A stretch of DNA of 38,876 nt from NCBI GenBank assembly GCA_048938025.1, contig JBHLMP010000035.1, forward strand, positions 1 to 38,876, read 5' to 3'. Under the pieces are notes generated by a model. It worked only from the letters and a program-made list of their open reading frames with translations. It did no database searches and was not told the origin of the DNA. Shown here piece by piece: positions 2,173 to 32,460 of this stretch. A program made the translations under genes and the position numbers. How positions within the stretch are numbered: position 1 is the first letter of the stretch; each line of letters starts with the position of its first letter. Origin of the DNA: Promethearchaeota archaeon (lineage in GTDB: Archaea > Asgardarchaeota > Lokiarchaeia > Sigyniarchaeales > SOKP01).

Positions 2173-3462
2173 TTAAAGCATCTTGAAAAGTTGCCGTAGA
2201 GCCATGCTCATGATATATTGCTGTATTTGTCGAGAACCCCCTACAATTTCCTGGATTCTCGAAATATTCATATAATCATGCATTAAGGTATTATCACATA
2301 AACCTGCTCCACCCATGAGGTTTGCTGCCTCATAGCAGATTTCCTTGGAGAGATTTGTACAATGATACTTGAACTGAGAAGCGCTTGCTACCATAGCTCT
2401 TGAAATGTTTCGGGGGATTTCTCCACCAAACTTTTCCATCTTATCATCATAAGTTTCTGCGAATTTTAGAAGTCCAATGGTTAGATTGGTTGTCCTGGCC
2501 CAAAGATCTGCTAAGAGAAATCCTACGCCTTGGAATTTTAGGATTTCTTGGTCAAATTGCTTTCTCATATTAGCATAAATAGCTGCATGTGAAATAGCAC
2601 CCCAACATTGGGAAATTGCGCCACATGCAATACCAATTCTTTCAGGAACTAAACCTTCGAAAAGATGCTCGCGACCTTTTCCAACTCCCCCAAGAACATA
2701 TTCTTTCGGAACACGTAGATTTACAAACTTCTCATGACCTAAATAGAGTTTTGGGACATAGGGGATCCCAACACGCTCACACTGCCAACCATCCCAATCA
2801 GTATTAATTAAAAATTGAGCCATCATATTTCCGTTGTTTTTTTCGGCAGTAGCATATGCTACAGCCCATTTTGCTTTTGGTGCATTGGTATTGTAAATTT
2901 TTTCTCCATTCAAAATGAAACTACCATCATCTTGTTCCTCGCATACACTTAATTGGTGTACAGCATCAGATCCTCTTTCAGGTTCTGTAATTAAAATACA
3001 TCCTGATGCTTTACCAGTAACTAAATCCTTTATAGCTTCTAACCTCTCAGGAACACCTTCATGGTGTTCATATATCGGATTAATAGCTAATACAGTTGCT
3101 CCACTACCCATAGCGAATTGAGTATCAAACATATCAATCGCGAGGTATCTCAGAAAATCAGCTACTGCCCCATAATTATCATAATTTATATCGATCATAT
3201 CAAAGTTATGAGCTCTAGTTATATACCCTTGTTCTCCAAAAGCGGGGATCCAATCATATACATCTTCATCGGGTCCATGGATGATATTGTTTTTCTTTTC
3301 AAAACGCATGCAGAATTTTTGAACACTCTTTAGAAAATTGAACTGTTCTGGAGATAATATAGGCATTAGGTTATTATTCAAGAAGCTGTATCGATTTTTA
3401 AGGTTTAACATAGCTAAAATTTCATCATTAATAGCTTGGTTCATAAATTTTGAGTTTTCCAT
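2173..3462 (-). CDS. Acyl-CoA dehydrogenase
   Basis: ITEPERGSD, LNGEKIYNTN, RKQFDQ and MGGAG motifs; close paralog of 3..1073. Confidence 0.95.
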   Translation of the reverse strand: MENSKFMNQAINDEILAMLNLKNRYSFLNNNLMPILSPEQFNFLKSVQKFCMRFEKKNNIIHGPDEDVYDWIPAFGEQGYITRAHNFDMIDINYDNYGAVADFLRYLAIDMFDTQFAMGSGATVLAINPIYEHHEGVPERLEAIKDLVTGKASGCILITEPERGSDAVHQLSVCEEQDDGSFILNGEKIYNTNAPKAKWAVAYATAEKNNGNMMAQFLINTDWDGWQCERVGIPYVPKLYLGHEKFVNLRVPKEYVLGGVGKGREHLFEGLVPERIGIACGAISQCWGAISHAAIYANMRKQFDQEILKFQGVGFLLADLWARTTNLTIGLLKFAETYDDKMEKFGGEIPRNISRAMVASASQFKYHCTNLSKEICYEAANLMGGAGLCDNTLMHDYMNISRIQEIVGGSRQIQQYIMSMALRQLFKML

Positions 3463-3690
3463 TATGTTTTATTACCCCTAACACTAAATTTTATAAATTT
3501 AAAGATCAATTAAATCTAATTAAGTAAATATGATCTAACTTTTTAATTTTTGTTAAAACCTCATTTCCAGTTTTGATAAGTTTAATTTAACTTTATAAAA
3601 CAGTTTTAAGAAATCGGTATTTTTTAGTCTTATTCATAACATATTGATTTTTGATCTTTATCTTCAATTGAACAATTTTATTCAAAGTCT

Positions 3691-4443
3691 TTAAGAAATT
3701 AACTTTTGCAAACGATTAGAAAATTTCTTTGATATTATAAGACCTGTCTCAAATGGACAATTAGGTTTAAACTGAACAACAGAAATGAAATGTTCATCTA
3801 TTCCTACTAATGAAAGAATGCCAAAATCCTCTAAAGATATAAGTTCACTTACTTTAAAATTACCTACTAGAAATCTGCCCTCTAAAAGCCTAATGATTTC
3901 AGAAAGAATATTAGGATCTAAATAAGAGATAATTACCCTACCAGTTTGGGTTAGTAAAGCCGAGGAAACGACAAATGAAGAGAATGTATGTAACTCATTA
4001 AAAACTTTGATTAAATCATTTTGAATTTCTTTTGGAACTAATTGTTTGCTATTTTCCATAATGTTAACGATATTTTCATCAAAATTAAAGAATTTAGAAA
4101 TTTCACCATCAAAATTGTCAGTAAGTAAATTTAAATCAAATTTGTTTAAAAATTGAGTTTTTATTTCTCTTAACTGATTTCTAAGTTCAACCAAATTATC
4201 TGTTCGATCACTGAATAAAGCAAACATTAATTCATCATTCTTTAGTTTTTCAATTTCGAATATAAACCTAAAAGGACCAACTTCAATTTCAGATAATTCT
4301 CCAGTTTTTAATGTTTGCTTTACAAATGAGAAAATTGCACTCAAGAAACTACTTGTTAATTTAATGTTAAAAATATCTTCATAAGTTTTATAGAAAATTA
4401 ATTCACCAGTATTACCTTTCATTATGAAGATATTCTTAATCAT
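3691..4443 (-). CDS. Longin-like N-terminal plus roadblock/LC7-like C-terminal domain protein
   Basis: N-term IKNIFIM..GELIFYK..LTSSFLSAIFSF..ELSEIEVG fits the longin pattern; C-term SSALLTQTGRVIIS fits the roadblock pattern. Confidence 0.65.
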   Translation of the reverse strand: MIKNIFIMKGNTGELIFYKTYEDIFNIKLTSSFLSAIFSFVKQTLKTGELSEIEVGPFRFIFEIEKLKNDELMFALFSDRTDNLVELRNQLREIKTQFLNKFDLNLLTDNFDGEISKFFNFDENIVNIMENSKQLVPKEIQNDLIKVFNELHTFSSFVVSSALLTQTGRVIISYLDPNILSEIIRLLEGRFLVGNFKVSELISLEDFGILSLVGIDEHFISVVQFKPNCPFETGLIISKKFSNRLQKLIS

Positions 4444-4660
4444 TTAGGTCAAAACTGATTTAATAAGTTAAATTATTCAATACCTTATTATTTAAAATAA
4501 TATTTAATCTATAAAAATTCTTGTATGATTTAATTACTTAATGTGAACACACATAAAATAAGAATAAATAAATTTTCTATTAACTTAACGAAATAATTTT
4601 CTTCAATAACGAAAAAATAAGAAATATGAAGATGTTTTTTAAATACTTTAATTCTATTAT

Positions 4661-5419
4661 CTAAAAACCTTCAAATTTTGCCCATTCATCATCTTCATCT
4701 ACTTCTTCCTCTTCTTCAGAGTATTCATCAACCTCTACACCTTTAATACTTTCTGGATATTCTTCTTCATATTCTTCAAAATCATCCTCGAAAGTTATCG
4801 CTTTCTCTATATCTGTGATTGATTGCTCTGCAACTTTCACTTCGGGTATTGGTTCTTCTAACGGTTTCTTCTTTTCAACTAATTTTAAATAATCTCCATG
4901 AATTTTAATTGTAATAGGAGTTTCCTCCTGTAATAATCTAACTACGACTTCTTCACTGCTTGATGTATCATGTGGCATCCGCATAACAAAAGCTCTTGCT
5001 CCTTCAAACACTCCACTTATAATTTCAACTGTATCTCCTTCCTCTAAATATTCAGTCACACTTCTTGGTAATAAGACATGCTTAAGTTCACTAAGTTTGA
5101 TATTCTGTACAATCCTTCCTTTTATATGGGGAATTCCTTGAACAGCAATCTGTACGTCACGCTTCTGGGGCGCTTCAAAAAATACGTAGCCAGGTAGTAG
5201 AGGAGATATAAGTATAGCTCTGATATCCGGGATTACATCTAAAATTTTAAATCTATAAAATATTTGTTTCAAAATGTTACTCTCTTGATTTATTGTCGTT
5301 CTAACAGCAAATAGTGTTGTCAAATCTTCTTTTTCTTCAATATCCTCTGTGCTAAAAATATCTTCTTGAACAATTTCTTTAATTTCTTCTTCTTTTGAAT
5401 TTTCTTCTTGGTCTGTCAT
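4661..5419 (-). CDS. spt5: Transcription elongation factor Spt5 (NGN + KOW) with acidic extensions
   Basis: FAVRTT..QE, LPGYVFFEA and GDTVEIISGVFEG (KOW) motifs. Confidence 0.93.
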   Translation of the reverse strand: MTDQEENSKEEEIKEIVQEDIFSTEDIEEKEDLTTLFAVRTTINQESNILKQIFYRFKILDVIPDIRAILISPLLPGYVFFEAPQKRDVQIAVQGIPHIKGRIVQNIKLSELKHVLLPRSVTEYLEEGDTVEIISGVFEGARAFVMRMPHDTSSSEEVVVRLLQEETPITIKIHGDYLKLVEKKKPLEEPIPEVKVAEQSITDIEKAITFEDDFEEYEEEYPESIKGVEVDEYSEEEEEVDEDDEWAKFEGF

Positions 5420-6504: not shown

Positions 6505-7704
6505 GTGATAAACGTTATGATACCATCATTTAATTTTGCGAGAATTCCACATATAATTTTTGGTGCTGGAAGATTAAAAGAACTCTACAACATTATTCCG
6601 AAATTTGGAAATAATATACTTTTTGTATTGGGGGGAAGTTCCCTTAAACAATATGGCAAATGGGATGAGATTATTTCCATATTGGAATATAAATCGATAC
6701 GATTTTCTTCTATCTCAATTTCTAGTGAACCATCTCCAACTCTTATAGATGAATATGTTGAAGAATTTAGAAGTAAAAACATCGATCTAGTTGTTGGAAT
6801 AGGTGGAGGAAGTGTAACTGATGCGGGGAAAGCGATTTCTGCTATGATTCCTAAAATAGATTCAATTAAGAATTATCTTGAAGGTATTGGTAATAAGACT
6901 CATGATGGTAAAAAAATTCCATATATAGCTATTCCAACAACATCTGGAACTGGAAGTGAAGCCACAAAAAATGCGGTAATTAGTGAAGTGGGGCCTAATG
7001 GGTTTAAAAAATCACTTCGTCATGATAATTTAATACCAAACGTAGCTATAATTGATCCTGAACTTATGATCTCTTGTCCAACGTCAATTACAGCAGCCTG
7101 CGGTATGGATGCTTTTACACAATTACTTGAAGCATATGTTTCACCAAAAGGAAATCCAATAACTGACGCACTAGCTTTTAGTGGAATGGAATATATAAGT
7201 AGAAATATCATACCTGCGTGTTCCAGTGGGGCTTCCAATATTGAAGTTCGTAGTTCTATGGCATACGGGTCCCTTATGTCTGGGATAACACTTGCGAATG
7301 CGGGATTAGGTATCATTCACGGATTAGCTTCACCTATAGGTGGTTTTTTCAATATTCCTCATGGCATAGTATGTGGTACTCTCCTCACTGAGGCAACTAA
7401 AATGAATATAAGAGTTTTGCAAGAACAAGATCTTGCTGGAAAGGAAGCATTAAAAAAATATGCCAAGATTGGAGCATTATTAATCAATGATCAACTTAAA
7501 GAAGAAGGAGACATCAATAAATATTGTTCTTTATTAATTGAAACGCTTGATAATTGGACTCACCAATTAAAAATTGATAGATTAGGCGAATTTGGAATTG
7601 CAAAAGAGGATGTTGATAAAATCGTAGAAAATTCGGGGTTAAAAAATAATCCCGTTAACCTAACTAAAGAGAATATCAAGACTATAGTATTAAATAGAAT
7701 ATAA
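6505..7704 (+). CDS. Iron-containing alcohol dehydrogenase
   Basis: GGGSVTDAGK, PTTSGTGSE, GMDAFTQLLEAY, LGIIHGLA and PHG motifs. Start may be the ATG at 6517. Confidence 0.94.
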   Translation: MINVMIPSFNFARIPHIIFGAGRLKELYNIIPKFGNNILFVLGGSSLKQYGKWDEIISILEYKSIRFSSISISSEPSPTLIDEYVEEFRSKNIDLVVGIGGGSVTDAGKAISAMIPKIDSIKNYLEGIGNKTHDGKKIPYIAIPTTSGTGSEATKNAVISEVGPNGFKKSLRHDNLIPNVAIIDPELMISCPTSITAACGMDAFTQLLEAYVSPKGNPITDALAFSGMEYISRNIIPACSSGASNIEVRSSMAYGSLMSGITLANAGLGIIHGLASPIGGFFNIPHGIVCGTLLTEATKMNIRVLQEQDLAGKEALKKYAKIGALLINDQLKEEGDINKYCSLLIETLDNWTHQLKIDRLGEFGIAKEDVDKIVENSGLKNNPVNLTKENIKTIVLNRI

Positions 7705-7723: not shown

Positions 7724-8239
7724 TTAAAGACTTTTTATAATCTCTTTTGCCAGCAACTCGAAAGCCAAGTCAACATTTTGGCCTGTTTTAGATGATATTT
7801 TCAAAAATTCAAATAAATTATACATTTCTTTATAAATTAAGGCAAATTCATCTTTAATTGTAATCAAATTAAATAAATCCAATTTAGTCCCTAAAAAGAT
7901 TATAGGCAGTTCTGGATTTTCATCTCTACAAATCTTTACCCATTGCTCTAAATTTTCTAAAGTAACTGTTCGGGTGAGATCAAACATTAAAAGTGCTCCT
8001 TTTGCGCCTCTAGCATAATTTTTAAGCAGAAATCGAAAACGTTCTTGCCCCCCGAAATCCCAGATTTGCAACATCACCTTTTCGCCATCCAATTCTAATT
8101 CTTTGAGAAAAAATTCAACACCAATGGTCATATGTAGCCCTTCTATAAATTTACCCTTAATGTATCTGTGAAGCATCGTAGTTTTCCCAACTCCGCCTTC
8201 CCCAGCTATAATTACCTTCAGGACTCTCGATTTGGTCAT
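7724..8239 (-). CDS. Rab-like small GTPase (Ras superfamily)
   Basis: GEGGVGKTT, TIGVEF, WDFGGQERF, TKLD and SSK motifs. Start taken as the ATG at 8239 by alignment to the paralog. Confidence 0.93.
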   Translation of the reverse strand: MTKSRVLKVIIAGEGGVGKTTMLHRYIKGKFIEGLHMTIGVEFFLKELELDGEKVMLQIWDFGGQERFRFLLKNYARGAKGALLMFDLTRTVTLENLEQWVKICRDENPELPIIFLGTKLDLFNLITIKDEFALIYKEMYNLFEFLKISSKTGQNVDLAFELLAKEIIKSL

Positions 8240-8288
8240 TTTCTTAGTACTTTTAATGAGTGAAAAATAATAAAGTAATAAATTTTTT

Positions 8289-8732
8289 TTAAGTCCTTTC
8301 AAAGGATAAATATTTTTTTTGTCTTAAAAATATAGTATTTAATCCAAATTCTTTCGCTTTTTTTCGTAATATGGAATCGTTTGTCGCTAAAAAGATAACA
8401 TAGCCTTCATTTTTTAACTCTATTCCTCTCCTCAGCAAGAAATTGTCTGTAGTTTCATTATCCTTTTTGATTTCATCTAAAAAGGTAATCTCATATTTAT
8501 TTCTATTCTTTTCCAGATAGGAAATTCCTGATTTAAAATCTCTTTGAAATTTTGTTGCATTTGGTTCTCTAACTTGTTTTGCTCCAAGTTCATCTAGAAT
8601 TTGTTTAAATATTATAAATTCTACCCCTCCTTCTAAATTTAATTTAACCTCATTAAGATAGTCCACTTTAAATTGGAATGGAAGAAGAATGAAATTGGAA
8701 TCTAAAATAATTAAATTATGTTTAGATCTCAA
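8289..8732 (-). CDS. PIN-domain ribonuclease (Fcf1/Utp24-like)
   Basis: IILDSNFILLP, ILDEL, TDNFLL, LATNDSILRKKAK and FLRQK motifs. Confidence 0.85.
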   Translation of the reverse strand: MRSKHNLIILDSNFILLPFQFKVDYLNEVKLNLEGGVEFIIFKQILDELGAKQVREPNATKFQRDFKSGISYLEKNRNKYEITFLDEIKKDNETTDNFLLRRGIELKNEGYVIFLATNDSILRKKAKEFGLNTIFLRQKKYLSFERT

Positions 8733-9250
8733 TAGACTTGCCGCTCTAAGATTTTTCTTGTTAATATTCCGAAAGCATTCTCAACATTTTCACCTGTTTT
8801 AGATGATATCTTAAGATAATCAATCAAATTAAATACTTCTAAAAATTCCTTTGCATACTTATCATCTACTTGGATATCATTTTCTAAATCCAACTTAGTT
8901 CCTAAAAAAAGAATAGGTAAATTTGGGTCACCTTTTCGAACAATATTAACCCATTGTTCAAGATTCTCTAAAGTAATTGGTCTTGTTAGGTCAAACATGA
9001 GGAGTGCTCCTTTTGCACCTAGTACATAGCTTTCAAGAAGAAACCTAAAACGTTCTTGACCTCCAAAATCCCAAAGCTGTAATGTGCATTGCTTGGTATC
9101 GATCATAGTCTCTTTGAGGAAAAATTCAACACCTATCGTCATTTTAGTCTCTGCTGAGAATCTCCCTTCCACATATCTATGAAGTAATGTAGTTTTTCCA
9201 ACTCCTCCTTCTCCAGCTGTGAGGATCTTTAGAATGAACTTTTTTGCCAC
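8729..9250 (-). CDS. Rab-like small GTPase (Ras superfamily)
   Basis: GEGGVGKTT, MTIGVEF, WDFGGQERFRFL, GTKLD and SSKTG motifs; no C-terminal Cys prenylation motif. Confidence 0.95.
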   Translation of the reverse strand: MAKKFILKILTAGEGGVGKTTLLHRYVEGRFSAETKMTIGVEFFLKETMIDTKQCTLQLWDFGGQERFRFLLESYVLGAKGALLMFDLTRPITLENLEQWVNIVRKGDPNLPILFLGTKLDLENDIQVDDKYAKEFLEVFNLIDYLKISSKTGENVENAFGILTRKILERQVY

Positions 9251-9997: not shown

Positions 9998-10543
9998 TTA
10001 AGCAAATCTCTGTTTTTCCTTATGTTCTTTCACTGAAATCTCTCTATCACTAAGTCTATTAAGCCTAATTAGACTGTCTGTAATAGATTTAACTTCTGCT
10101 CGAGTTTTTAGTTCAAATTCCAATAGACCTTCAAAAATCTCTTTTTCGGTAAATCCTTTATTGTAAAGTTCCAAAAATTTAGCTATTGTTTGTTCATGAT
10201 AATAAATATACTGTTTGTTTAGAAACGTGATTAACCAATTTTTCTTCTCCTGTTTTTGGGATAAATCAAACATTTTCTCTCTGATTTTATTAACTTTCTT
10301 CTTTAATTTTTTAGCAACTATAATATCTTCAACTCTATAATACTTTTTCATTATCCTTGTTAATCTGGTTTTGAAAAATAAAGCAGGAATATACGATAAA
10401 ATAAAAAAAACAATAAAAATCACAGTTATTACTATAGCAGCTACATATTCTTGATATACGGCTAGAATAATAATTATTAATACAAGAATCCAAAACCAGT
10501 GTCTCAGAATTGTCTTAAAAATAACTATATACTTTTTTGGCAT
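9998..10543 (-). CDS. Hypothetical membrane protein (2 N-terminal TM helices)
   Basis: Two hydrophobic N-terminal segments followed by a charged domain. Confidence 0.75.
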   Translation of the reverse strand: MPKKYIVIFKTILRHWFWILVLIIIILAVYQEYVAAIVITVIFIVFFILSYIPALFFKTRLTRIMKKYYRVEDIIVAKKLKKKVNKIREKMFDLSQKQEKKNWLITFLNKQYIYYHEQTIAKFLELYNKGFTEKEIFEGLLEFELKTRAEVKSITDSLIRLNRLSDREISVKEHKEKQRFA

Positions 10544-10622
10544 GAAAAATATCTAAAAAAGAATAATTCTGTAATATATATTGATATAATAAATGATTTA
10601 AAAAAATTGTTTTTAGTTATTT

Positions 10623-10645
10623 AAAAAAAAGAGATATCTTAAAAA
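10623..10645 (-). terminator. Oligo(U) terminator of the 5S precursor
   Basis: T5 and T8 tracts on the minus strand immediately after the 3' arm of the processing stem. Confidence 0.55.
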
Positions 10646-10661
10646 CCACATAAACAAGCGT

Positions 10662-10812
10662 TTCCGGGTTCCCGAACCACCTCGAAAACAGTTGGTTTTT
10701 CGGATGGGACCGGGTATTTTCCTCGAGTACCATGACCGTGAGCGAACTCACAATTTGCCATTTCCCACTGATCGCAACAGCAGTACTATTGGACAACGTA
10801 AACGAGTTTAAC
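10662..10812 (-). rRNA. rrf: 5S rRNA gene, circularly permuted (3' half 10812-10747, UUCG linker 10746-10743, 5' half 10742-10662 with a 28-nt insert)
   Basis: The reordered sequence folds as 5S: helix I CUCACGGU/AUUGUGAG, helix II GUA..CGAG/CUCG..UAC, helix III CCGG/CCGG with CCCAU..GAA loop C, conserved CCGGAAGUUAA, loop E AGUA/GAA, helix IV CUGCUG/CAGUGG. Length is 119 nt after removing the linker and insert. Confidence 0.88.
10670..10697 (-). other. Candidate 28-nt BHB/BHL intron in 5S loop C
   Basis: Central helix CCGA/UCGG, bulges AAA and GAA, inner helix ACCA/UGGU. Confidence 0.6.
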
Positions 10813-10863
10813 TTCCGGCGCTTAGCTAGCAGCTGATTATGTGGTATTAAAGTATACTAACCA

Positions 10864-10871
10864 TTTTATAA
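10864..10871 (-). promoter_or_regulatory. TATA box for the 5S precursor
   Basis: TTATAAAA on the minus strand, roughly 20-25 nt upstream of the 5' arm of the processing stem (10845). The AT-rich background weakens the call. Confidence 0.5.
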
Positions 10872-10990
10872 GTACGGTTATTTTATTAAAAAATACCTTC
10901 CTATATGGTTATAAGTAAATGAAATAATAAAGACTAGTAATTAAATTTTTTCATAATAAAAGATTAACTTTAAAAGGAATAAATTGAGAG

Positions 10991-11560
10991 GTGTTTGTAA
11001 AGGTGATATTTCAACTGATAATGCAAGATGCACCTTGGTATCAGTATTTAGTAAATATTTTTATTGTAATTATTGGAAGGTTACTTGACATACTTAGTAC
11101 GAGATATGTATCAAAAGAACTTAAACTGGAGACAAATAAATTAGCAAGGCGAATAGGGTGGCGAGGTGTGATAATAATGCAAATTCCTATCATTGTTTTA
11201 GGAGCTCTGGATATTTATCTAGCATTTTTTATCTTTATATGGTCTCTTTTTTTATTTGCTAATAATATTTTGGGAAGCTGGAATACTAAGCAAGTTGGTG
11301 AGGAGCAATATTATGAAGATCTTAAATTACAGTTAAAACAAACTAAGAGATGGCAAATTATTCTAAGCGAAATATCATATCTTTTAACATTTACAGTAAC
11401 AGGGATTTTTATTATCGTGTTCTTATTTGTTTTTAATAATTTCATAGCAATTATCTTCATATCATTAGCGTTAATCTGTCAAGGTCTGCTAACTAGCGTT
11501 AGATCCATGAAATACTTATTTGATTTAAAGAAAGAATCTCAAAAAAATAATGAAAATTAA
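10991..11560 (+). CDS. Hypothetical multi-pass membrane protein
   Basis: Several hydrophobic segments; LDILST...ETN motif. Start may be the ATG at 11021. Confidence 0.75.
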   Translation: MFVKVIFQLIMQDAPWYQYLVNIFIVIIGRLLDILSTRYVSKELKLETNKLARRIGWRGVIIMQIPIIVLGALDIYLAFFIFIWSLFLFANNILGSWNTKQVGEEQYYEDLKLQLKQTKRWQIILSEISYLLTFTVTGIFIIVFLFVFNNFIAIIFISLALICQGLLTSVRSMKYLFDLKKESQKNNEN

Positions 11561-11567
11561 ATTTAGG

Positions 11568-13715
11568 TTAATTTAAACGTTCTATTCGGTCTAAAATACG
11601 TGTATATTTTTTAATCCCATAAACTACAAAAATTACGGAAATTGCTACTATACTTATCATTATAATCAAAGCAATATTTAGCATATAGTTTATTATTGAT
11701 TTAGGAATTTGAAATGTATAAGATTCATTGTAAAAAACATTGGTATTATTAGCATAATCTCGAGCAACGATCATATACGAATAATTACCTGGTTCTAATT
11801 TGTCAATAATAAATTCAAAATTCCTCTCATCTTCTTGAATACTATTCGATAGTCTATAAGATGTAAAATTGTTAAACTGATCCTTAGAAATTAATAAATA
11901 TACACTTTCAATCCCTGATTGATTATCATAAATTTCTATATTGAAACACATCTTATCTGAAACTGAAGGATTTTCTGGAACATACTCTAATCGAGAAAAT
12001 TCAGGTTTATTATCATCTGAAAGCGTAGTAAAGTTAAAGTAAGATGGAATTAAATTGTGCCCTGTAATAGTTACATTGTATGTTTCATTAACTTGTGCCG
12101 GGACACGCAACTTTGCGATACCCTCTTTATTAGCATATGAAGTATAATATTTTCCGTCAGTAGTTCTAAAATGAACTCTCGCATATGGAATTATATTATT
12201 AGAAATGTCTCTAATTTCAATAGAAACTAATTGACCTTCATAAATATTTTGATTAAAGGGATTACCTGCTTTTTTTGGCTTATTAGTGTAGATATCAACC
12301 TCAGGATCCCCTAAAAGACAATAAGTTAATAAATTTTTACGCTCGAAATCATAATAAGTTGCCCCATCTCCTCTTTTATAGTAATCACTATTTATATATG
12401 AAACTTTAGAATCATATAATGCCCTGCCTTGCTGAAACTTTTTTTCTTCAAAAAATTCCTTCCAAAATAACTTGGCATTTCCGCGGTTTAATTTTTCAAA
12501 GTTATAATCATCTTCATAATACCAACTTACTCTAAGTGCTCCAATAAATCCAATTGCACCAGCGCTCAATTGCTTTATTAGAGTTTCTCCAATATTATTA
12601 TCACTATGATCATAACAGGAGGTAGAACAAGCATCTATATAAACTAATGAAGGCATATTAATATTAGAACTTGAACTAGCATCAGCAGACGTATATCCTG
12701 CGGTACTCGGATTACGATAATAAGCTGTTGGGGCTCCATGTCCGGCCATAATGACTGTTGAATAACCATTATTGAACTGATTCCTGAGTTCTATACGTGT
12801 AAGATTTCCTGCTTCTTCTACTAAATGAGTAGAATTCATCTCTAAATTCACATAATTTTGTATAATATAACTTGTTAACCAGCTTTCATATTCTCCATCA
12901 GTTCCATAAACGTGATATTGGGAGATACCTCCTGCTAATAACATTCTATTCATCCAATCATCTAGATAAGGATCCATTTCATATTTTAAAGTCTTATTTA
13001 CCATTATCTCAAGTTCTTCAGCAGTATCAGCAGGAAATCTACCAACATATACCTCTGGAACCCATGAAATTTCATCATACCAATATAAATTATCTTGTGG
13101 AGCTTCCCCCCATCTTGAATCTTCATCACTATTCCAAGTACATAGAAGATCCAAATCACCTGTGAGATCTGCATAATAATAATCTGTAGGTTTGTAATAA
13201 TTATCCATTCCTGAAGCTTCGCTTCCACCATATCTTACAACATCAGGGTTATATACTTCTCTTATAGGAATTAAATCATTTTGAGCATCCCCAGCTAAAA
13301 GAACCCAGCGAATATTTTCTTCATCATAATATGATTTTATCATATTTCGAATCTTTTCGGGGTCATCTCTGCCAGGATAATCCGAAAAATTGCTCAAAAT
13401 TATTGTTTTAACTCCTTTTTCATTTTTCCAATCCGCTAAAGGTTTTAAAGTATCAATAAAATCAGTGTTGTTTGGTGCTATAATTAACATCTCAATTTTT
13501 GGATAATACCAATCATTTTCCAATGATGAATAATCAATTTCAGGTAAAAATGATAAATCAATTTCAGGATTACTGCTATAAAGATTCAGTTCTTCTGAAA
13601 TATAAGAATTATTATAAACAGCAAAGTATTGACTACAACTAAGAAAAATCGATGGAAACAATAAGAATAGAATAATAAATAAATATACAAATTTTTTAGG
13701 AGAAGACCTTAGCAT
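11568..13715 (-). CDS. Peptidase C25 (gingipain family), secreted and C-terminally membrane anchored
   Basis: LADWKNEKG, VLLAGD, PTDYYYADL, VGRFP, catalytic AGHG and DACS, LLGDP; N-terminal signal-like segment and C-terminal TM helix. Confidence 0.9.
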   Translation of the reverse strand: MLRSSPKKFVYLFIILFLLFPSIFLSCSQYFAVYNNSYISEELNLYSSNPEIDLSFLPEIDYSSLENDWYYPKIEMLIIAPNNTDFIDTLKPLADWKNEKGVKTIILSNFSDYPGRDDPEKIRNMIKSYYDEENIRWVLLAGDAQNDLIPIREVYNPDVVRYGGSEASGMDNYYKPTDYYYADLTGDLDLLCTWNSDEDSRWGEAPQDNLYWYDEISWVPEVYVGRFPADTAEELEIMVNKTLKYEMDPYLDDWMNRMLLAGGISQYHVYGTDGEYESWLTSYIIQNYVNLEMNSTHLVEEAGNLTRIELRNQFNNGYSTVIMAGHGAPTAYYRNPSTAGYTSADASSSSNINMPSLVYIDACSTSCYDHSDNNIGETLIKQLSAGAIGFIGALRVSWYYEDDYNFEKLNRGNAKLFWKEFFEEKKFQQGRALYDSKVSYINSDYYKRGDGATYYDFERKNLLTYCLLGDPEVDIYTNKPKKAGNPFNQNIYEGQLVSIEIRDISNNIIPYARVHFRTTDGKYYTSYANKEGIAKLRVPAQVNETYNVTITGHNLIPSYFNFTTLSDDNKPEFSRLEYVPENPSVSDKMCFNIEIYDNQSGIESVYLLISKDQFNNFTSYRLSNSIQEDERNFEFIIDKLEPGNYSYMIVARDYANNTNVFYNESYTFQIPKSIINYMLNIALIIMISIVAISVIFVVYGIKKYTRILDRIERLN

Positions 13716-26589: not shown

Positions 26590-27852
26590 TTATTTTAAAT
26601 ATTCATCTTTTATCCTTGAAAGTAATGCAACTATTATCATTATACTACCTAATAGTATAAATGTCGCACTAAGATTCCACATTACAAGAAATCCAATTAC
26701 CGGGTAAAGAACTGTTCTTAAAAGACTCCCAATCATATTAATAGTGCTCAACACAGTTGCTCTGTTATTAGTTTCAATTTGTTTGTTTATTCCCTTTATT
26801 AGAAGTAAATCACGAGAAATACCGAAACCAATAACGATTAGAATTAAAGCAATGCTAACTGGAACAAAGTATATTGTGGCCATAAGTATAAAACCTATAC
26901 CAGGTATCATCGTATAAAATTGGAGAAATACCTTCTTATTCTTGTATCTTTTCTCCAATTTTGATACTAGATTTGTAAAGATAATTTCAACGATCGTCAT
27001 AACAGCAGCAACAAGTCCAAATAGAGCCAGTTGAAAACCTAGCTGTTCCAAGTATAACTGATACATCCAAAATATAAAAAATACAACTGAATCTATCATT
27101 ATGAGATCGATTGCTATAATTCTTAAAACGCTATTCCTTGTTAACTCTTTAAAACCGGATCGTACTATTTTGAAATAGTTTTCAGTCTCATCTTTTTCTA
27201 AATCATGGTTTGGTTCTTTGAGTGTCAATGATATAAATGTTGCTAATATAAAAGGAAAAAACATAAAGCTCATTGTTAGTGATAATGAAAGAACTACGCC
27301 AATTATTGAGCCAATTGGTGCTGAAATCCCTACACCTATTAAAAAATAACTTCTATTTCTTGCCATAACCTTTGAAATCTCTTCTTCTTTTCCCATCTTT
27401 CTTAAAGTATCATAGGAAAAAGCCTGATCTGTTCCAGAAGTGAAAGCGTTTCCAAGTGCAAATAGAGTCTCTCCAATCGCAAAAATTACTATGTTAGGAT
27501 AACTCGCATATACCAGTGCCGCTAAGGCTGTCGATAAACCTCCTAAAATTAGAGAAAGTTTTCTACTTATGTAATCTGCTATAGCTCCACACGGAATTTC
27601 GAAGATTAATATCATGATAGTAAAGTAGCTCTGTAAGAACATAACCTCGATAAAAGTTAATTTTCCCCACGTCAAGAAAAATGGTATTAAAACACCTGAA
27701 ATCAAATGGCATCCCATAAAAAAGCGAACTAGATACAACTTATGTATATTTGACTGCCATGCACCTATATCAAGATAGTTATTTTCTAAACCTGGTTGAG
27801 ATTGAACTATTCTATCCCCAGTGCATTCCTTTAATTCTGTCATTTTATACAC
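26590..27852 (-). CDS. MFS transporter
   Basis: FEIPCGAIADYISRK motif A variant, SGTDQA, about 12 TM segments. Confidence 0.9.
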   Translation of the reverse strand: MYKMTELKECTGDRIVQSQPGLENNYLDIGAWQSNIHKLYLVRFFMGCHLISGVLIPFFLTWGKLTFIEVMFLQSYFTIMILIFEIPCGAIADYISRKLSLILGGLSTALAALVYASYPNIVIFAIGETLFALGNAFTSGTDQAFSYDTLRKMGKEEEISKVMARNRSYFLIGVGISAPIGSIIGVVLSLSLTMSFMFFPFILATFISLTLKEPNHDLEKDETENYFKIVRSGFKELTRNSVLRIIAIDLIMIDSVVFFIFWMYQLYLEQLGFQLALFGLVAAVMTIVEIIFTNLVSKLEKRYKNKKVFLQFYTMIPGIGFILMATIYFVPVSIALILIVIGFGISRDLLLIKGINKQIETNNRATVLSTINMIGSLLRTVLYPVIGFLVMWNLSATFILLGSIMIIVALLSRIKDEYLK

Positions 27853-28341
27853 CTTTTTTAATATTTTTTTGAAATTTTTCTTTTAAATAAAAAACATATT
27901 TGGATCTTCAAGTTTACGAGCGAGCAAAATGAGTAAATGGGCTAATTTACGAATCTCTAGACAAAAGAAGAAGATTACAATGCAAAAGCAGATCAGATTA
28001 AAAAGAATCAGAAAGTAGTTGTTAATTATCTCAGAGGAAAAGTATTAGCGTATTGTTGATTTTAATATTTTCACATGATTTTTACTATAAAACCTAAATA
28101 TCTTGAGGTTTTAGCAGCTGAATTACCAATAGATGGATCATGGACTAATATATTTTCTCCATAATTATCAATCCATCTATAATCTAATATTTTCATGGAA
28201 CAATCAACAAATATGTTTAATATAATTTTATATTATACTAATACTTATAAATATACCGTATGGATTTGTAGTCAACATATAGAAAATGGGAAACAAATGG
28301 GAAATCTTCTCTTAGTTTTTTCTGAATCAGGATGAGAAGAT

Positions 28342-29781
28342 TTAGGATTTTGAAATAACTAATTTTACAAGTTCTGCTGTTGTCTGACAATAAATTCTTG
28401 CTAATGATTTCCTTTTAGCCTCACATATAATACGAATAATAGGTTCTGTATTTGAAGGATGGATCAAAACGAACCACTCGTTATTTTTACCAAATCTAAG
28501 GTCCCAACCAACTTGCGAAACAATTTCTCCTTCATCAATCAGTTCTTTCTTGGTCTGATTTATAATAAAATCTACATTATGTTCCAAAACATCAATACTT
28601 TCTCTATGAGCATAATATTTTGGTAGTAAAGAAACTAAACTGGAAATCTTTTCTTTATTGGATATTATAAGATCTACAATTTTAGCGGCTGCAAATATTC
28701 CATCTCTAGTATTATTAAAAGGGGGAAACATAACACCACCACAAGATCCTTCTCCACCAAAAATCAAGCATTTTTCCTTACTTAACTTACACTTTTGTAA
28801 TAGAGAATACATTTCCTCAGATAAAAATCTCTCCCCTATGGGTGTTCGAATAATTTGAGCATTATATCTTTTAGCAAGAACTTCAAACATTAAAGATGAC
28901 GCTAAATTTGTTATAAAGATTATTTTATCATAATTGGCATTATATTTTTTAAGATAATTCTCAGTAATAAGTGCTAAACCAACATCTTCAGGATAACACA
29001 CCCCATTATCTCCAATAATAGCCAATCTATCAGCATCACTGTCATGGGCAAATCCTATATCATAGTCACCTTGCCTAACTTCCATTATTAAGTCATTTAA
29101 ATTCTTTTCAATAGGTTCTATTTCTCGAGGAAATTTGGAATTATCCAATAAATCATTATTGATTACTTTAACTTTACATCCCATTCTTTCAAGTACTTGA
29201 GGAGTAACACACTTTCCTGCTCCCGCTCCAGTATCAATTACAACATTTAAATTATTTTGCTCTCTTAATTGCTTTAAATTTATATATTTAAATAATTTGT
29301 TGACATATTCGGGTATTGGATTCAGATTTACTATTTTTTGGCTTAAATAAGAATTATTAATGTGGTACGAATCCAAATTAATGTCATTTAAGTTAGTAGA
29401 AATTTGATAAAGATCGGAGGGACCTAAATAAGTTCTTTTTGAGAGAAGCTTTATACCATTCCATTCTTGTGGATTATGGGAGCCAGTTATGATAATCCCT
29501 GCTGGAATATCTAAACTATTTCTTGCATGAATAATAATTGGGGTGGGACAGACTCCAACATTGGTGATATTGAAATCAGTTGCGATTAAACCTTCAATAA
29601 ATGCTTTTTCAATTATATCTCCACTTGGTCTAGTATCCTTTCCTATTATTACTCTCTTATCTTTATTATTAAACCATAACCCAAAAGAAATAGCTATTTT
29701 TTTAACAATCTCAAAATTTAAGTTTTTCCCTACAATTCCTCTAATTCCACTAAAAGTAAAAATTAGATTATTAGTTTGCAT
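28342..29781 (-). CDS. Alpha-D-phosphohexomutase (PGM/PMM/GlmM family)
   Basis: SGIRG, TGSHNP, DSDADR, GGEGS and PSNTEP motifs. Confidence 0.93.
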   Translation of the reverse strand: MQTNNLIFTFSGIRGIVGKNLNFEIVKKIAISFGLWFNNKDKRVIIGKDTRPSGDIIEKAFIEGLIATDFNITNVGVCPTPIIIHARNSLDIPAGIIITGSHNPQEWNGIKLLSKRTYLGPSDLYQISTNLNDINLDSYHINNSYLSQKIVNLNPIPEYVNKLFKYINLKQLREQNNLNVVIDTGAGAGKCVTPQVLERMGCKVKVINNDLLDNSKFPREIEPIEKNLNDLIMEVRQGDYDIGFAHDSDADRLAIIGDNGVCYPEDVGLALITENYLKKYNANYDKIIFITNLASSLMFEVLAKRYNAQIIRTPIGERFLSEEMYSLLQKCKLSKEKCLIFGGEGSCGGVMFPPFNNTRDGIFAAAKIVDLIISNKEKISSLVSLLPKYYAHRESIDVLEHNVDFIINQTKKELIDEGEIVSQVGWDLRFGKNNEWFVLIHPSNTEPIIRIICEAKRKSLARIYCQTTAELVKLVISKS

Positions 29782-31695: not shown

Positions 31696-32460
31696 CTATT
31701 TAAAGTAAGTTTTTATAAAATCCTCTATTGCTTTATTAACTTCAGAAGGTTTCTCTATCATGACCATGTGCCCCGCTTTCTTAACAATTACAAGTTTCGA
31801 ATTTTTAATTTTATCATGAAAATATTGTGAATATTTAACTGGTGTGAGTTCATCAGCTTTGCCACAAATAATTAAACATGGAATATTGATTGAGCTTGTT
31901 TTTTCTAATGCATTAAAAGCATCACAGATTTTAAAATCATTATAGGTTACTTCTGGATCTATTTGAGACGTTTCCAAAATAGCATTATCTATTACTTTTT
32001 TAGATGTTTTTCTATAAAATGAACCAATTCGTAAATAATTTAAATACTCTTGGTATTTAGGTTTTATTGAATTATATATAAATTGACTTACTCGCAATCT
32101 TCCTCCTGTTGCACATAGAATTAATGCTGAAACATCATTTGAATATTTGAAATAATATTCCTGTATAACAGCTCCTCCCAAAGAATGTCCACCTAAAATT
32201 AATCTTTCAGGTTTAAGATAATCTGCGAATTTTTTAACAACATCAACATATAAGTCTAATGAAAGAACTGGAAAAATATTTGATTTATTATGAGAAGGTA
32301 AATCTAATGCAATTATATTATAATCAATATTTAAGTAAAACTGATTATCCCAAATATTTGAATTACCCCCTGATCCATGTATAAAGATAAGAGTTTTTTG
32401 AGAATTATTATCCTTAATTTGGTAAAAAATTTGTTTTCCAGAATATTCAAAATATGGAAT
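31696..32460 (-). CDS. Alpha/beta hydrolase, probable ATT start
   Basis: HGSGG, GHSLG, GKADELTP and AGH motifs. The ORF-track N-terminal extension is low-complexity; GGTG lies 7 nt before ATT-CCA-TAT. Confidence 0.85.
   Translation of the reverse strand: MPYFEYSGKQIFYQIKDNNSQKTLIFIHGSGGNSNIWDNQFYLNIDYNIIALDLPSHNKSNIFPVLSLDLYVDVVKKFADYLKPERLILGGHSLGGAVIQEYYFKYSNDVSALILCATGGRLRVSQFIYNSIKPKYQEYLNYLRIGSFYRKTSKKVIDNAILETSQIDPEVTYNDFKICDAFNALEKTSSINIPCLIICGKADELTPVKYSQYFHDKIKNSKLVIVKKAGHMVMIEKPSEVNKAIEDFIKTYFK

Follow-up and report, generated by a model that had tools for sequence, protein, structure and literature searches.

The window analysed here, a stretch of 38,876 nucleotides (contig JBHLMP010000035.1 of the Promethearchaeota genome assembly GCA_048938025.1), carries on its minus strand, from position 10845 to 10645, what is very probably a single functional 5S ribosomal RNA (rRNA) gene that is circularly permuted and matured by bulge-helix-bulge (BHB) cleavage and ligation. 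In this gene the 3' half of the 5S sequence precedes the 5' half, and a UUCG tetraloop links the two native ends. This reading is carried by the gene order itself, its conservation and covariation among relatives, the absence of a canonical 5S gene, the enzymes that the genome encodes, and assembled RNA in which the halves are ligated, the insert is missing and the cap is present.

The locus and its identity as 5S rRNA

All coordinates are window positions and the locus (10623-10900) is read on the minus strand. Direct reading of the sequence places the 5S halves in swapped order, with the 3' half at 10812-10747, the UUCG cap at 10746-10743 and the 5' half at 10742-10662, framed by a leader and a trailer that pair with each other. 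The features, in reading order, are:

10861-10900, minus strand: putative promoter containing a pair of TATA-like elements, at about 10891-10881 and about 10871-10864; its role and the transcription start are predicted
10837-10845, minus strand: outer leader-trailer helix, 5' strand ACCACAUAA, pairing with 10653-10645 and present in the minimum-energy fold
10824-10836, minus strand: leader spacer with a small hairpin, from sequence and fold
10819-10823, minus strand: BHB outer helix h, 5' strand AAGCG, pairing with CGCUU at 10660-10656
10815-10818, minus strand: BHB central 4-base-pair helix H, 5' strand CCGG, pairing with CCGG at 10667-10664
10812-10814, minus strand: bulge 1, AAG, with the predicted cut 10813/10812 and G10812 as first product nucleotide
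10747-10812, minus strand: 3' half of 5S, GUUAAACUCG..AUUGUGAG, from profile positions 47-115 and covariation
10743-10746, minus strand: UUCG tetraloop linking the native 3' and 5' ends and capping helix I, crossed by RNA contigs
10699-10742, minus strand: 5' half of 5S, first part, CUCACGGUCAUGG..ACCCGGUCCCAUCCGAA, from profile positions 3-44
10669-10698, minus strand: 30-nucleotide loop C insert, a putative relaxed BHB intron with predicted cuts at 10699/10698 and 10669/10668
10662-10668, minus strand: last seven product nucleotides, CCCGGAA, the 3' strand of helix III, doubling as the 3' strand of H (10667-10664)
10661-10663, minus strand: bulge 2, AAA, with the predicted cut 10662/10661
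10656-10660, minus strand: BHB outer helix h, 3' strand CGCUU
10645-10653, minus strand: outer leader-trailer helix, 3' strand UUAUGUGGU
10623-10645, minus strand: T-runs at 10645-10641 and 10630-10623, likely transcription terminators

The 3' half holds the end of helix III, the 3' strand of helix II, helices V and IV with loop E, and the 3' strand of helix I. The whole 5' half reads CUCACGGU..CCCGGAA (10742-10662), and its first part comprises the 5' strands of helices I and II, loop B, the 5' strand of helix III and loop C as far as ..CCCAUCCGAA. The identity of these pieces is apparent from a nhmmer profile built from nine canonical 5S genes of the sister family f2. In native order the locus aligns to it as two swapped pieces (profile positions 47-115 at 29-98 and 3-44 at 105-147), and once reordered and spliced in silico it aligns from end to end with 46.3 bits (E 4.7e-16, profile 3-114 against residues 2-115 of 117), while reordering with the insert kept gives 32.5 bits. 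The match in swapped order is far beyond chance, and the permuted gene order proposed by the sequence-only reading, a first interpretation made from this DNA without database searches, is thus borne out both by direct reading and by the profile.

The gene escapes standard annotation, as that reading had anticipated. The Rfam 5S family (RF00001, family covariance model, gathering cut-off 38 bits) has no match at cut-off in the window, none at E-values up to 10 in 10400-11100, and none in the whole genome (3.52 Mb, 88 contigs, 96.7% complete). The native-order locus fails the cut-off, its relatives score 18-33 bits, and the sub-threshold RF00001 matches in the genus are the same permuted arrangement. 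Two other Rfam families matched in 10400-11100 at a permissive threshold, ODC_IRES and SNORD44, are at chance level and were dismissed. Among 135 genomes of the family, RF00001 exceeds its cut-off in two (G041 and G114), and neither match is an archaeal canonical 5S: both (L144 on C68 of G041 and L145 on C263 of G114) adjoin bacterial large-subunit rRNA and were rejected as contaminants. One of these contaminant bacterial 23S genes carries a group I intron (RF00028, 65 bits). Within the order, RF00001 matches above cut-off come from nine genomes, all of family f2. A canonical 5S gene elsewhere in the genome, which would have undercut the sequence-only reading, was therefore found neither in the genome nor, as an archaeal gene, in the family. 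The 5S gene is described as easily identified in archaea in the portion of PMC4267664 drawn on here, and the Methods of Wu et al. (2022) state that 5S genes were not predictable in their circularized Asgard genomes. Permuted encoding would explain these unfindable 5S genes in closed Asgard genomes.

The same arrangement recurs throughout the family. A covariance model of the permuted core (R1, built from alignment A1) finds one copy in the genome, the match lying at 10710-10812 with 108 bits and including the 3' half, and matches 50 of the 54 genomes of its own genus and 118 of the family's 131 other genomes (12 of 13 genera); it has no match in 19 genomes from three other families of the order. 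In the permuted 5S fold 94.4% of the cells in helices I, II, IV and V are paired. Compensatory change affects 13 of 29 pairs among 11 sequences, and 23 of 29 pairs among 58 distinct sequences from other genera; in each case none of 500 shuffles reaches the value. Such changes are present in every helix and support the three-way junction of helices I, II-III and IV-V. Helix III is formed only after ligation, or as H within the precursor. The same permutation with covarying flanks, which the sequence-only reading had proposed to look for in other Asgard genomes, is thus present across the family. Weak second matches of the permuted models occur at L087:1031-1179 (G129:C109:5234-5382, 39.9 bits), which is left out of the loop tallies below, and at G073:C51:21538-21607 (39 bits); both genomes also hold a strong copy, and these matches may be degenerate extra copies.

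The permuted gene lies in the closed genomes G006 and G023, and an independent Logan contig of run X3 (1126 nucleotides) is colinear with the window. A local mis-assembly, named by the sequence-only reading as a way in which it could fail, is thereby excluded. A broader doubt would be that the locus is a pseudogene, a rearrangement relic or an assembly artefact, with the real 5S gene in unassembled sequence; the assembly is a draft of 88 contigs, and rRNA genes are often missed in such bins. This has next to no likelihood, since closed genomes are among the 118 that carry the gene, every helix shows compensatory changes, the gene is expressed, and no archaeal canonical 5S exists in the 135 family genomes.

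The flanks of the gene are conserved as well. A block AAAAUAACCG..CUUAUAUAA is kept upstream of the leader among genus relatives, and relatives carry a GUAGC..GCUAC hairpin at the position of the leader spacer. The outer helix is formed in locus L032 by AACUCACUUAAAAUG with CAUUUUAAUGUGAGUU, and in other loci its strands differ in sequence yet stay complementary. The canonical 5S genes of the sister family likewise end in T-runs.

BHB flanks, ligated RNA and proposed maturation

The leader, read as h, H and bulge, pairs with the trailer, read as H, bulge and h, in the geometry of a BHB motif, and both h and H covary; every flank and BHB pairing named by the sequence-only reading is found in the sequence. 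Flanks were extracted for 119 loci and the BHB tally covers 118, since the leader of L075 is cut by a contig end. A partial match (G004:C4:1-62) and a truncated second copy (G014:C211) were left out, and the offsets of L080 and L066 were set by hand. Two breakpoint types are distinguished:

Type a, including the window, 87 loci: leader ..h-C(C/U)GG-AN/G UUAAAC.., trailer ..C(C/U)C(G/A)G-AA/N-h
Type b, 31 loci: leader ..GCG-CUGG-AA/C CAUCCGAACCCGGAAGUUAAAC.., trailer ..AUACCCGG-UC/A-CGC..

Helix H is paired at all four positions in 114 of the 118 loci. The flanks come in 61 distinct combinations, in which the second pair of H is CG in 25, UA in 22 and UG in 14, and the h pair adjoining H is GC in 44, CG in 7, AU in 4, UA in 3, GU in 2 and UG in 1, with zero mismatches at either pair. 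These combinations are 90.0% paired, against 72.8% (standard deviation 1.6) when leaders are re-dealt to other trailers, and none of 1000 such re-dealings reaches the observed value. The possibility that the leader CCGGAA is a mere duplicate of the product 3' end was considered and ruled out: where helix III is CUGG/CCAG, the trailer CCAG always faces a leader CUGG and never a copy of CCAG, and it is therefore pairing that is conserved and not a duplication. On the product side, h' is a weak helix of about 2-3 base pairs (GUU with AAC).

EndA, the archaeal splicing endonuclease, cuts after the second nucleotide of a bulge. Cuts at this position would yield CCCGGAA/GUUAAAC in type a and ACCCGGUC/CCAUCCGAA (which starts CCAUCC) in type b, and the two types thus give the same canonical loop C/helix III sequence. 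In the 87 type a loci, bulge 1 is AAG in 78, ACG in 6, AUG in 2 and AGG in 1, and bulge 2 is AAA in 47, AAU in 28, AAG in 11 and AAC in 1. The retained third base of bulge 1 is always G and the retained AA of bulge 2 is invariant, while the discarded second base of bulge 1 varies among A, C, U and G and the discarded third base of bulge 2 takes all four values; this pattern matches the cut-position prediction. For the window, the cuts that the sequence-only reading predicted at 10813/10812 and 10662/10661 would regenerate canonical CCCGGAA/GUUAA, and this junction is present in RNA contigs.

The RNA consists of assembled contigs from two sediment metatranscriptome studies (P1 and P2). Record 1 of X1 (137 nucleotides, P1) and record 4 of X2 (147 nucleotides, P2) fit 10699-10818 with five and four differences, respectively, and zero gaps, and both run straight over the UUCG cap. 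Beyond 10818, on the RNA strand, X1 continues with GGUCCCAUCCGAAC and X2 with CCCGGUCCCAUCCGAAC; beyond 10699, two X2 contigs continue with CCCGGAAGUU. The loose ends read ..CCGAA-CCCGGAA-GUU.. and GGUCCCAUCCGAAC-CCGGAAGUUAAAC, the junction being read from contig ends in which the joined pieces are only 7-17 nucleotides long. The assembled RNA thus reads ..CCCAUCCGAA-CCCGGAA-GUUAAAC.., without the leader, the trailer and the 30-nucleotide insert, and the 147-nucleotide contig wraps a 121-nucleotide circle by 26 nucleotides. Run X4 contributed no contig to this stretch, which is no sign of absence. Junction and cap occur together in no genomic arrangement among the 119 loci. Junction-spanning RNA, which the sequence-only reading had named as a check, thus exists in two studies, as contigs of near relatives that hold both junction and cap.

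These contigs bear directly on the idea that the permuted transcript functions unchanged or after mere trimming, remaining linear with its ends in helix III and without any ligation. Brown-algal mitochondrial 5S, permuted in its final product (Valach et al., 2014; PMC4267664, in the part consulted), offers a precedent. For the present locus it is very improbable, as the ligated junction is found in the RNA of both studies, the leader-trailer BHB is under selection for pairing, and at least five breakpoints regenerate one continuous 5S, which would be pointless without ligation. With one copy, no canonical gene and RNA contigs of this kind, the locus is probably the organism's ribosomal 5S, its presence in the ribosome being predicted.

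A second question concerns the loop C insert, which the sequence-only reading overlooked and which is found in 28 of the 87 type a loci and is absent from the other 59. The insert parses to UCCG-AA/N..hairpin..CGGG-AA/C in 27 of the 28 (30 nucleotides in 26, 31 in one; L044 is unparsed), and its H (UCCG with CGGG) is paired at all four positions in 26 of these 27; the bulges in the window are AAA and AAC. The insert hairpin (h') differs in sequence between clades and keeps its pairing. The motif falls short of the strict hBHBh' form: h' is present and covaries, and no h directly adjoins it on the exon side. The insert is missing from the RNA contigs that differ from the window at 4-5 of 120 positions and that come from an environmental relative. 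Only L050, L057 and L059 lie within five differences of the window over the 120-nucleotide stretch, and all three bear the insert; the nearest insert-less locus shows 19 differences. The contigs have their source within the window's own cluster, in which the close genomes are all insert-bearing, and they thus speak for loss of the insert in addition to ligation.

The insert could instead be an expansion hairpin that is retained, giving a mature 5S of 151 nucleotides. Its hairpin covaries, as that of an expansion segment would, and its 3' side has no canonical outer helix; large retained insertions are reportedly found in the 5S of Halococcus. We consider this improbable. The insert is flanked by a fully paired H and two 3-nucleotide bulges in 26 of 27 loci, the predicted cuts restore CCCAUCCGAA/CCCGGAA exactly, the 5S profile gives 46.3 bits after removal against 32.5 before it, contacts with the ribosome are made by loop C, and the RNA contigs at 4-5 differences from the window lack the insert even though the three genomes that near to the window all bear it and the nearest insert-less one is 19 differences away. 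The insert is most likely a BHB-type intron that is also removed, and the final product is most likely 121 nucleotides long and not 151. Of the 151-nucleotide circle in the sequence-only reading, the ligated junction is therefore upheld by the RNA contigs, and the length is not, as insert-free contigs point to 121 nucleotides.

Inserts of about 30 nucleotides are not confined to loop C. They occur in loop D in 15 of the 119 loci (L012, L014, L017, L056, L058, L060-L062 and L068 among them) and at helix I or the cap in four (L079, L123, L127 and L130); by eye, those of L012/L014, L017 and L079 have BHB-compatible flanks, and splicing as predicted from these gives back the consensus. L066, in helix II, and L088 also contain inserts of about 30 nucleotides, and insert length is near-constant across sites. 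L044 (G069:C1:82332-82433 and trailer) has an odd loop C insert of about 31 nucleotides with a duplicated 5'-half fragment, GGAUAAUACCCGGUCCC. To our knowledge, introns in 5S rRNA have not been reported before.

The genome encodes two EndA paralogues (201 and 200 amino acids; C66:88094-88699 and C33:14644-15246), which share 30% identity and both contain PF02778 and PF01974, and one RtcB (PF01139; C68:33115-34422), the two enzymes invoked by the sequence-only reading; their action on 5S is a prediction. Asgard EndA is an (alpha-beta)2 enzyme, with an L1 insert linked to a broad substrate range (Kaneta et al., 2018; PMC5829648), and relaxed motifs are cleaved by broad-specificity EndA types, according to the excerpt of the same source used here. 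A 2026 preprint describes Asgard transfer RNA (tRNA) genes as heavily interrupted and counts 44 of 60 genomes with two EndA paralogues, leaving rRNA unmentioned. In the proposed pathway, a transcript of about 200 nucleotides would run from the TATA-type promoter to a T-run. Its leader and trailer would pair through the 9-base-pair outer helix, the 5-base-pair h and the 4-base-pair H, leaving two 3-nucleotide bulges on opposite strands that form the BHB. A two-subunit EndA would cut after the second bulge nucleotide on each strand, at 10813/10812 and 10662/10661, and RtcB would join the ends to ..GAACCCGGAA-GUUAAAC.., restoring canonical helix III/loop C and closing a circle. The relaxed BHB of loop C would be cut at 10699/10698 and 10669/10668, the 30-nucleotide insert released and its flanks joined, and the end product would be a 5S of 121 nucleotides with helix I capped by UUCG. 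In this scheme we infer which enzymes act, precisely where they cut, which of the two events comes first and what topology the mature RNA has.

As regards topology, we lean slightly towards a mature 121-nucleotide 5S that stays a covalently closed circle in the ribosome. The cap is four nucleotides long in 115 of the 119 loci (UUCG in 64, UUAG in 19, UUUG in 15, UACG in 7, UCCG in 3, CUCG in 3 and four singles), and the helix I pairs that close it covary (CG 26, GC 19, AU 12); a tetraloop of such constancy and stability resembles a structural cap more than an excised spacer. It is possible, if rather doubtful, that the circle is only an intermediate that is re-opened at or near UUCG, leaving in the ribosome a linear 5S whose ends are native-like; the sequence-only reading, too, allowed for both outcomes. 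Expression of permuted tRNA genes passes through a circular intermediate (Soma et al., 2007, as cited in PMC4267664), circularised precursors of 16S and 23S are also re-opened in the classical view, and the contigs are compatible with a re-opened form. On the other hand, the linker is of exactly four nucleotides nearly throughout and mostly of the UNCG type, with covarying adjacent pairs; the RNA contigs cross the cap in two studies; a nuclease site is not evident; and, in the parts of those papers relied on, a tetraloop-capped helix I is functional in Escherichia coli (PMC7283268) and the permuted signal recognition particle (SRP) RNA of Thermoproteus stays circular (PMC4731332).

Several points weigh against a permuted gene matured by BHB cleavage and ligation. 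The RNA comprises environmental contigs and not raw reads, and it comes from a near relative that differs at 4-5 of 120 positions; such contigs give no abundances and cannot separate a circle from mixed linear forms. In the unconstrained minimum fold of the precursor (-64.4 kcal/mol) the leader CCGG is paired to helix III's other CCGG instead of the trailer, and the BHB-constrained fold (-63.5 kcal/mol) lies 0.9 above it. The cut rule is general EndA knowledge, and its sole backing here is that each breakpoint, cut in this way, regenerates canonical 5S. No outer helix adjoins the 3' splice site of the insert, helix III lying across a 5-nucleotide gap, which makes the motif a relaxed one. R1 has no match in 13 of the 131 family genomes; these 13 are 68-97% complete, with G011, G086 and G094 at 95-97%. 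Finally, fitting alignments A2 and A3 to the model biases them towards its structure.

Rotation of the gene and its distribution among Asgard archaea

Types a and b have homologous leaders and trailers, and the RNA that they encode is rotated by 16 nucleotides, the type b junction lying in loop C. Type b is scattered over genera g1, g14, g17 and g18 (e.g., within the range L021-L046, and at L011:1446-1622 on the minus strand), which suggests that the gene has rotated repeatedly while its BHB cassette stayed fixed. Candidate routes for such rotation are the complementary DNA of a circle or unequal recombination at CCGG repeats. Further breakpoints are found in other families. In f6, which belongs to another order, L142 and L143 are permuted with the junction ..ACGGCAG/UUAAGC, cut between the G and the U of GUUAAG; H pairs GUCG or GCCG with CGGC, and the h helices, unrelated in sequence, are complementary. 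In f3 (L010:1390-1600, minus strand) the breakpoint lies in loop B, and in further families the junction is ..CACGGA/AGUUAAGC. In all, there are at least five breakpoints, every one of which regenerates one continuous 5S. The locus of f4 (L146) looks permuted, and no convincing BHB could be placed there.

For the phylum, one draw of 151 genomes from 27 families was searched with both a broader model (R2) and RF00001. The permuted form (R2, full-length) is found in 15 of the 27 families and 59 genomes, and the canonical form (RF00001 above cut-off) in 7 of the 27 and 49 genomes, as follows:

Permuted: f1 24/25, f8 4/4, f13 4/5, f24 5/6, f27 7/7, f20 2/4, f26 2/3, f18 2/3
Permuted, remaining families: f19 2/4, f9 1/2, f10 1/13, f11 1/1, f22 1/5, f23 1/1, f32 1/1
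Canonical: f12 25/26, f17 17/19, f21 3/5, f2 1/2, f15 1/1, f30 1/1, f31 1/1

No family among the 27 contains both forms, and neither R2 nor RF00001 finds a form in five (f14, f16, f25, f28 and f29). Outside f1, 18 of the 34 genomes matched by R2 were inspected, and all 18 show the permuted order. Two of these loci were left unparsed (G187 at a contig end; G268, where the pattern failed), and 12 of the 16 parsed ones show H, a 3-nucleotide bulge and a long h, with duplex z of -3 or lower and h sequences unrelated to one another. L252-L272 (f8, f9, f11, f13, f18-f20, f22-f24, f26, f27 and f32) are permuted loci, and two f10 genomes missed by the R2 filters are also permuted (f10 loci L273-L275). 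The permuted 5S is present in the closed genomes G161 (1.4 Mb), G195 (3.6 Mb), G171 and G181 (2.8 Mb) and G184 (3.1 Mb, two copies). The permuted 5S is typical of a large part of the Asgard phylum. As to scope, the permutation that the sequence-only reading saw in one genome extends to a whole family and much of the phylum.

Some observations on individual loci and on the surroundings of the gene may be added. The leaders of L258 (G171) and L272 (G181) contain CGUG-AGA twice with a hairpin in between, the first copy adjoining the trailer-pairing strand, and this repeat may represent an intron-like element inside the leader. The canonical 5S genes of f2 have a TATA-like box about 25-30 nucleotides upstream and T-runs downstream; BHB flanks and circularisation were considered for them and rejected, as no leader-trailer pairing is visible by eye. 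In a closed f2 genome, three tandem canonical 5S genes stand about 375 bases apart (L003, G032:C1:1399892-1400758). In the window, the neighbouring open reading frames at 9998-10543 (minus strand) and 10991-11560 (plus strand) have no Pfam match, a PIN-domain gene lies between two Ras-family small GTPase genes on the minus strand at 7724-9250, and genes for an Fe-alcohol dehydrogenase and a C25 peptidase are located at 6505-7704 and 11568-13715, respectively; ARAGORN finds no tRNA within the window. The Asgard origin assumed by the sequence-only reading is correct, the genome being of the Promethearchaeia/Loki type. The neighbourhood is conserved, with an Fe-alcohol dehydrogenase gene a few kb from the 5S in several relatives too, e.g., at 2931-5127 with the 5S at 205-307 on a contig of 79214 bases, and at 27546-29742 with the 5S at 32326-32428 on one of 54186 bases.

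Significance and comparison with known systems

The sequence-only reading knew of no described permuted 5S gene, and a search of the literature, mostly outside subscription journals, likewise found no archaeal one. That the ribosomal 5S of about half of the sampled Asgard families is an endless closed circle, made by EndA and RtcB from a permuted gene, is to us an evenly balanced proposition. If true, the tRNA-splicing machinery would be essential for ribosome biogenesis; a circular product would let the gene rotate cost-free within its leader/trailer BHB cassette, which would explain the at least five breakpoints; and 30-nucleotide BHB mini-introns might become established in loops C and D as well as helices I and II. 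The permuted form, the only one in a family of more than 130 species and in many further Asgard families, adds a ribosomal RNA to the range of BHB-dependent scrambled genes, otherwise made up of tRNAs and one SRP RNA. Genome-quality standards include a 5S criterion, and the permutation would explain why such genomes fail it. The covariance models of permuted 5S (R1 and R2) recover the gene and can be used for annotation.

Permuted tRNA genes, which are reportedly present in Cyanidioschyzon merolae and Thermofilum, resemble the 5S genes in the position of the 3' half upstream, the leader-trailer BHB and the route through a circular RNA. In permuted tRNAs the linker between the native ends is removed, which frees the acceptor ends. 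In the 5S genes, by contrast, the linker is a constant 4-nucleotide tetraloop with no sign of removal. A closer parallel in another respect is the permuted SRP RNA of Thermoproteus tenax (Plagens et al., 2015; PMC4731332), where, in the account drawn on here, a universal structured RNA is also permuted and the canonical gene was unfound until the permutation was recognised. That case concerns 7S RNA in a few species of another phylum, and circularity of the final product has been demonstrated there, while the Asgard 5S is spread over 15 of the 27 sampled families, has several breakpoints and carries extra BHB introns inside the gene.

For rRNA itself, archaeal pre-16S and pre-23S are excised by EndA at BHB motifs in a leader-trailer stem and then circularised, and in some archaeal lineages a circular or permuted 23S is the ribosomal form (PMC12918454, PMC7758197 and PMC10515664, in the sections used). 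Archaeal 16S and 23S genes are colinear with their rRNA, whereas a permuted 5S gene requires ligation to build the 5S sequence at all. The Background of PMC12918454 (2026) states that 16S and 23S are circularised, "but not 5S rRNAs", and passages in the same group of papers (PMC12918454/PMC7758197/PMC10515664) describe 5S of Methanococcus maripaludis as matured at A/U-rich motifs.

Three systems resemble the present one at the level of 5S. In the brown-algal mitochondrial 5S, helix I is likewise closed into a hairpin and the ends are moved; that RNA is organellar, has its ends at the junction of domains alpha and gamma and is permuted in its final product, in the description cited without BHB or ligation (Valach et al., 2014; PMC4267664). 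In an engineered E. coli 5S the native ends are joined by a 4-nucleotide connector as well, with new ends placed in loop C or D and ribosomes that are active; this artificial construct, which forms part of a fusion with 23S (Huang et al., 2020; PMC7283268, as far as the text drawn on goes), demonstrates no more than the tolerance of a capped helix I. Circular 5S has also been seen at low level in Sulfolobus and Halobacterium (Danan et al., 2012, and a 2025 paper; PMC3326292, PMC12558985). These circles, in the portions of the reports consulted, arise from colinear genes, are minor, have variable ends, involve no BHB and are possibly degradation products according to their authors. Taken together, the kind of mechanism is known, and its use for 5S, its breadth, the rotating breakpoints and the introns within 5S appear to be new.

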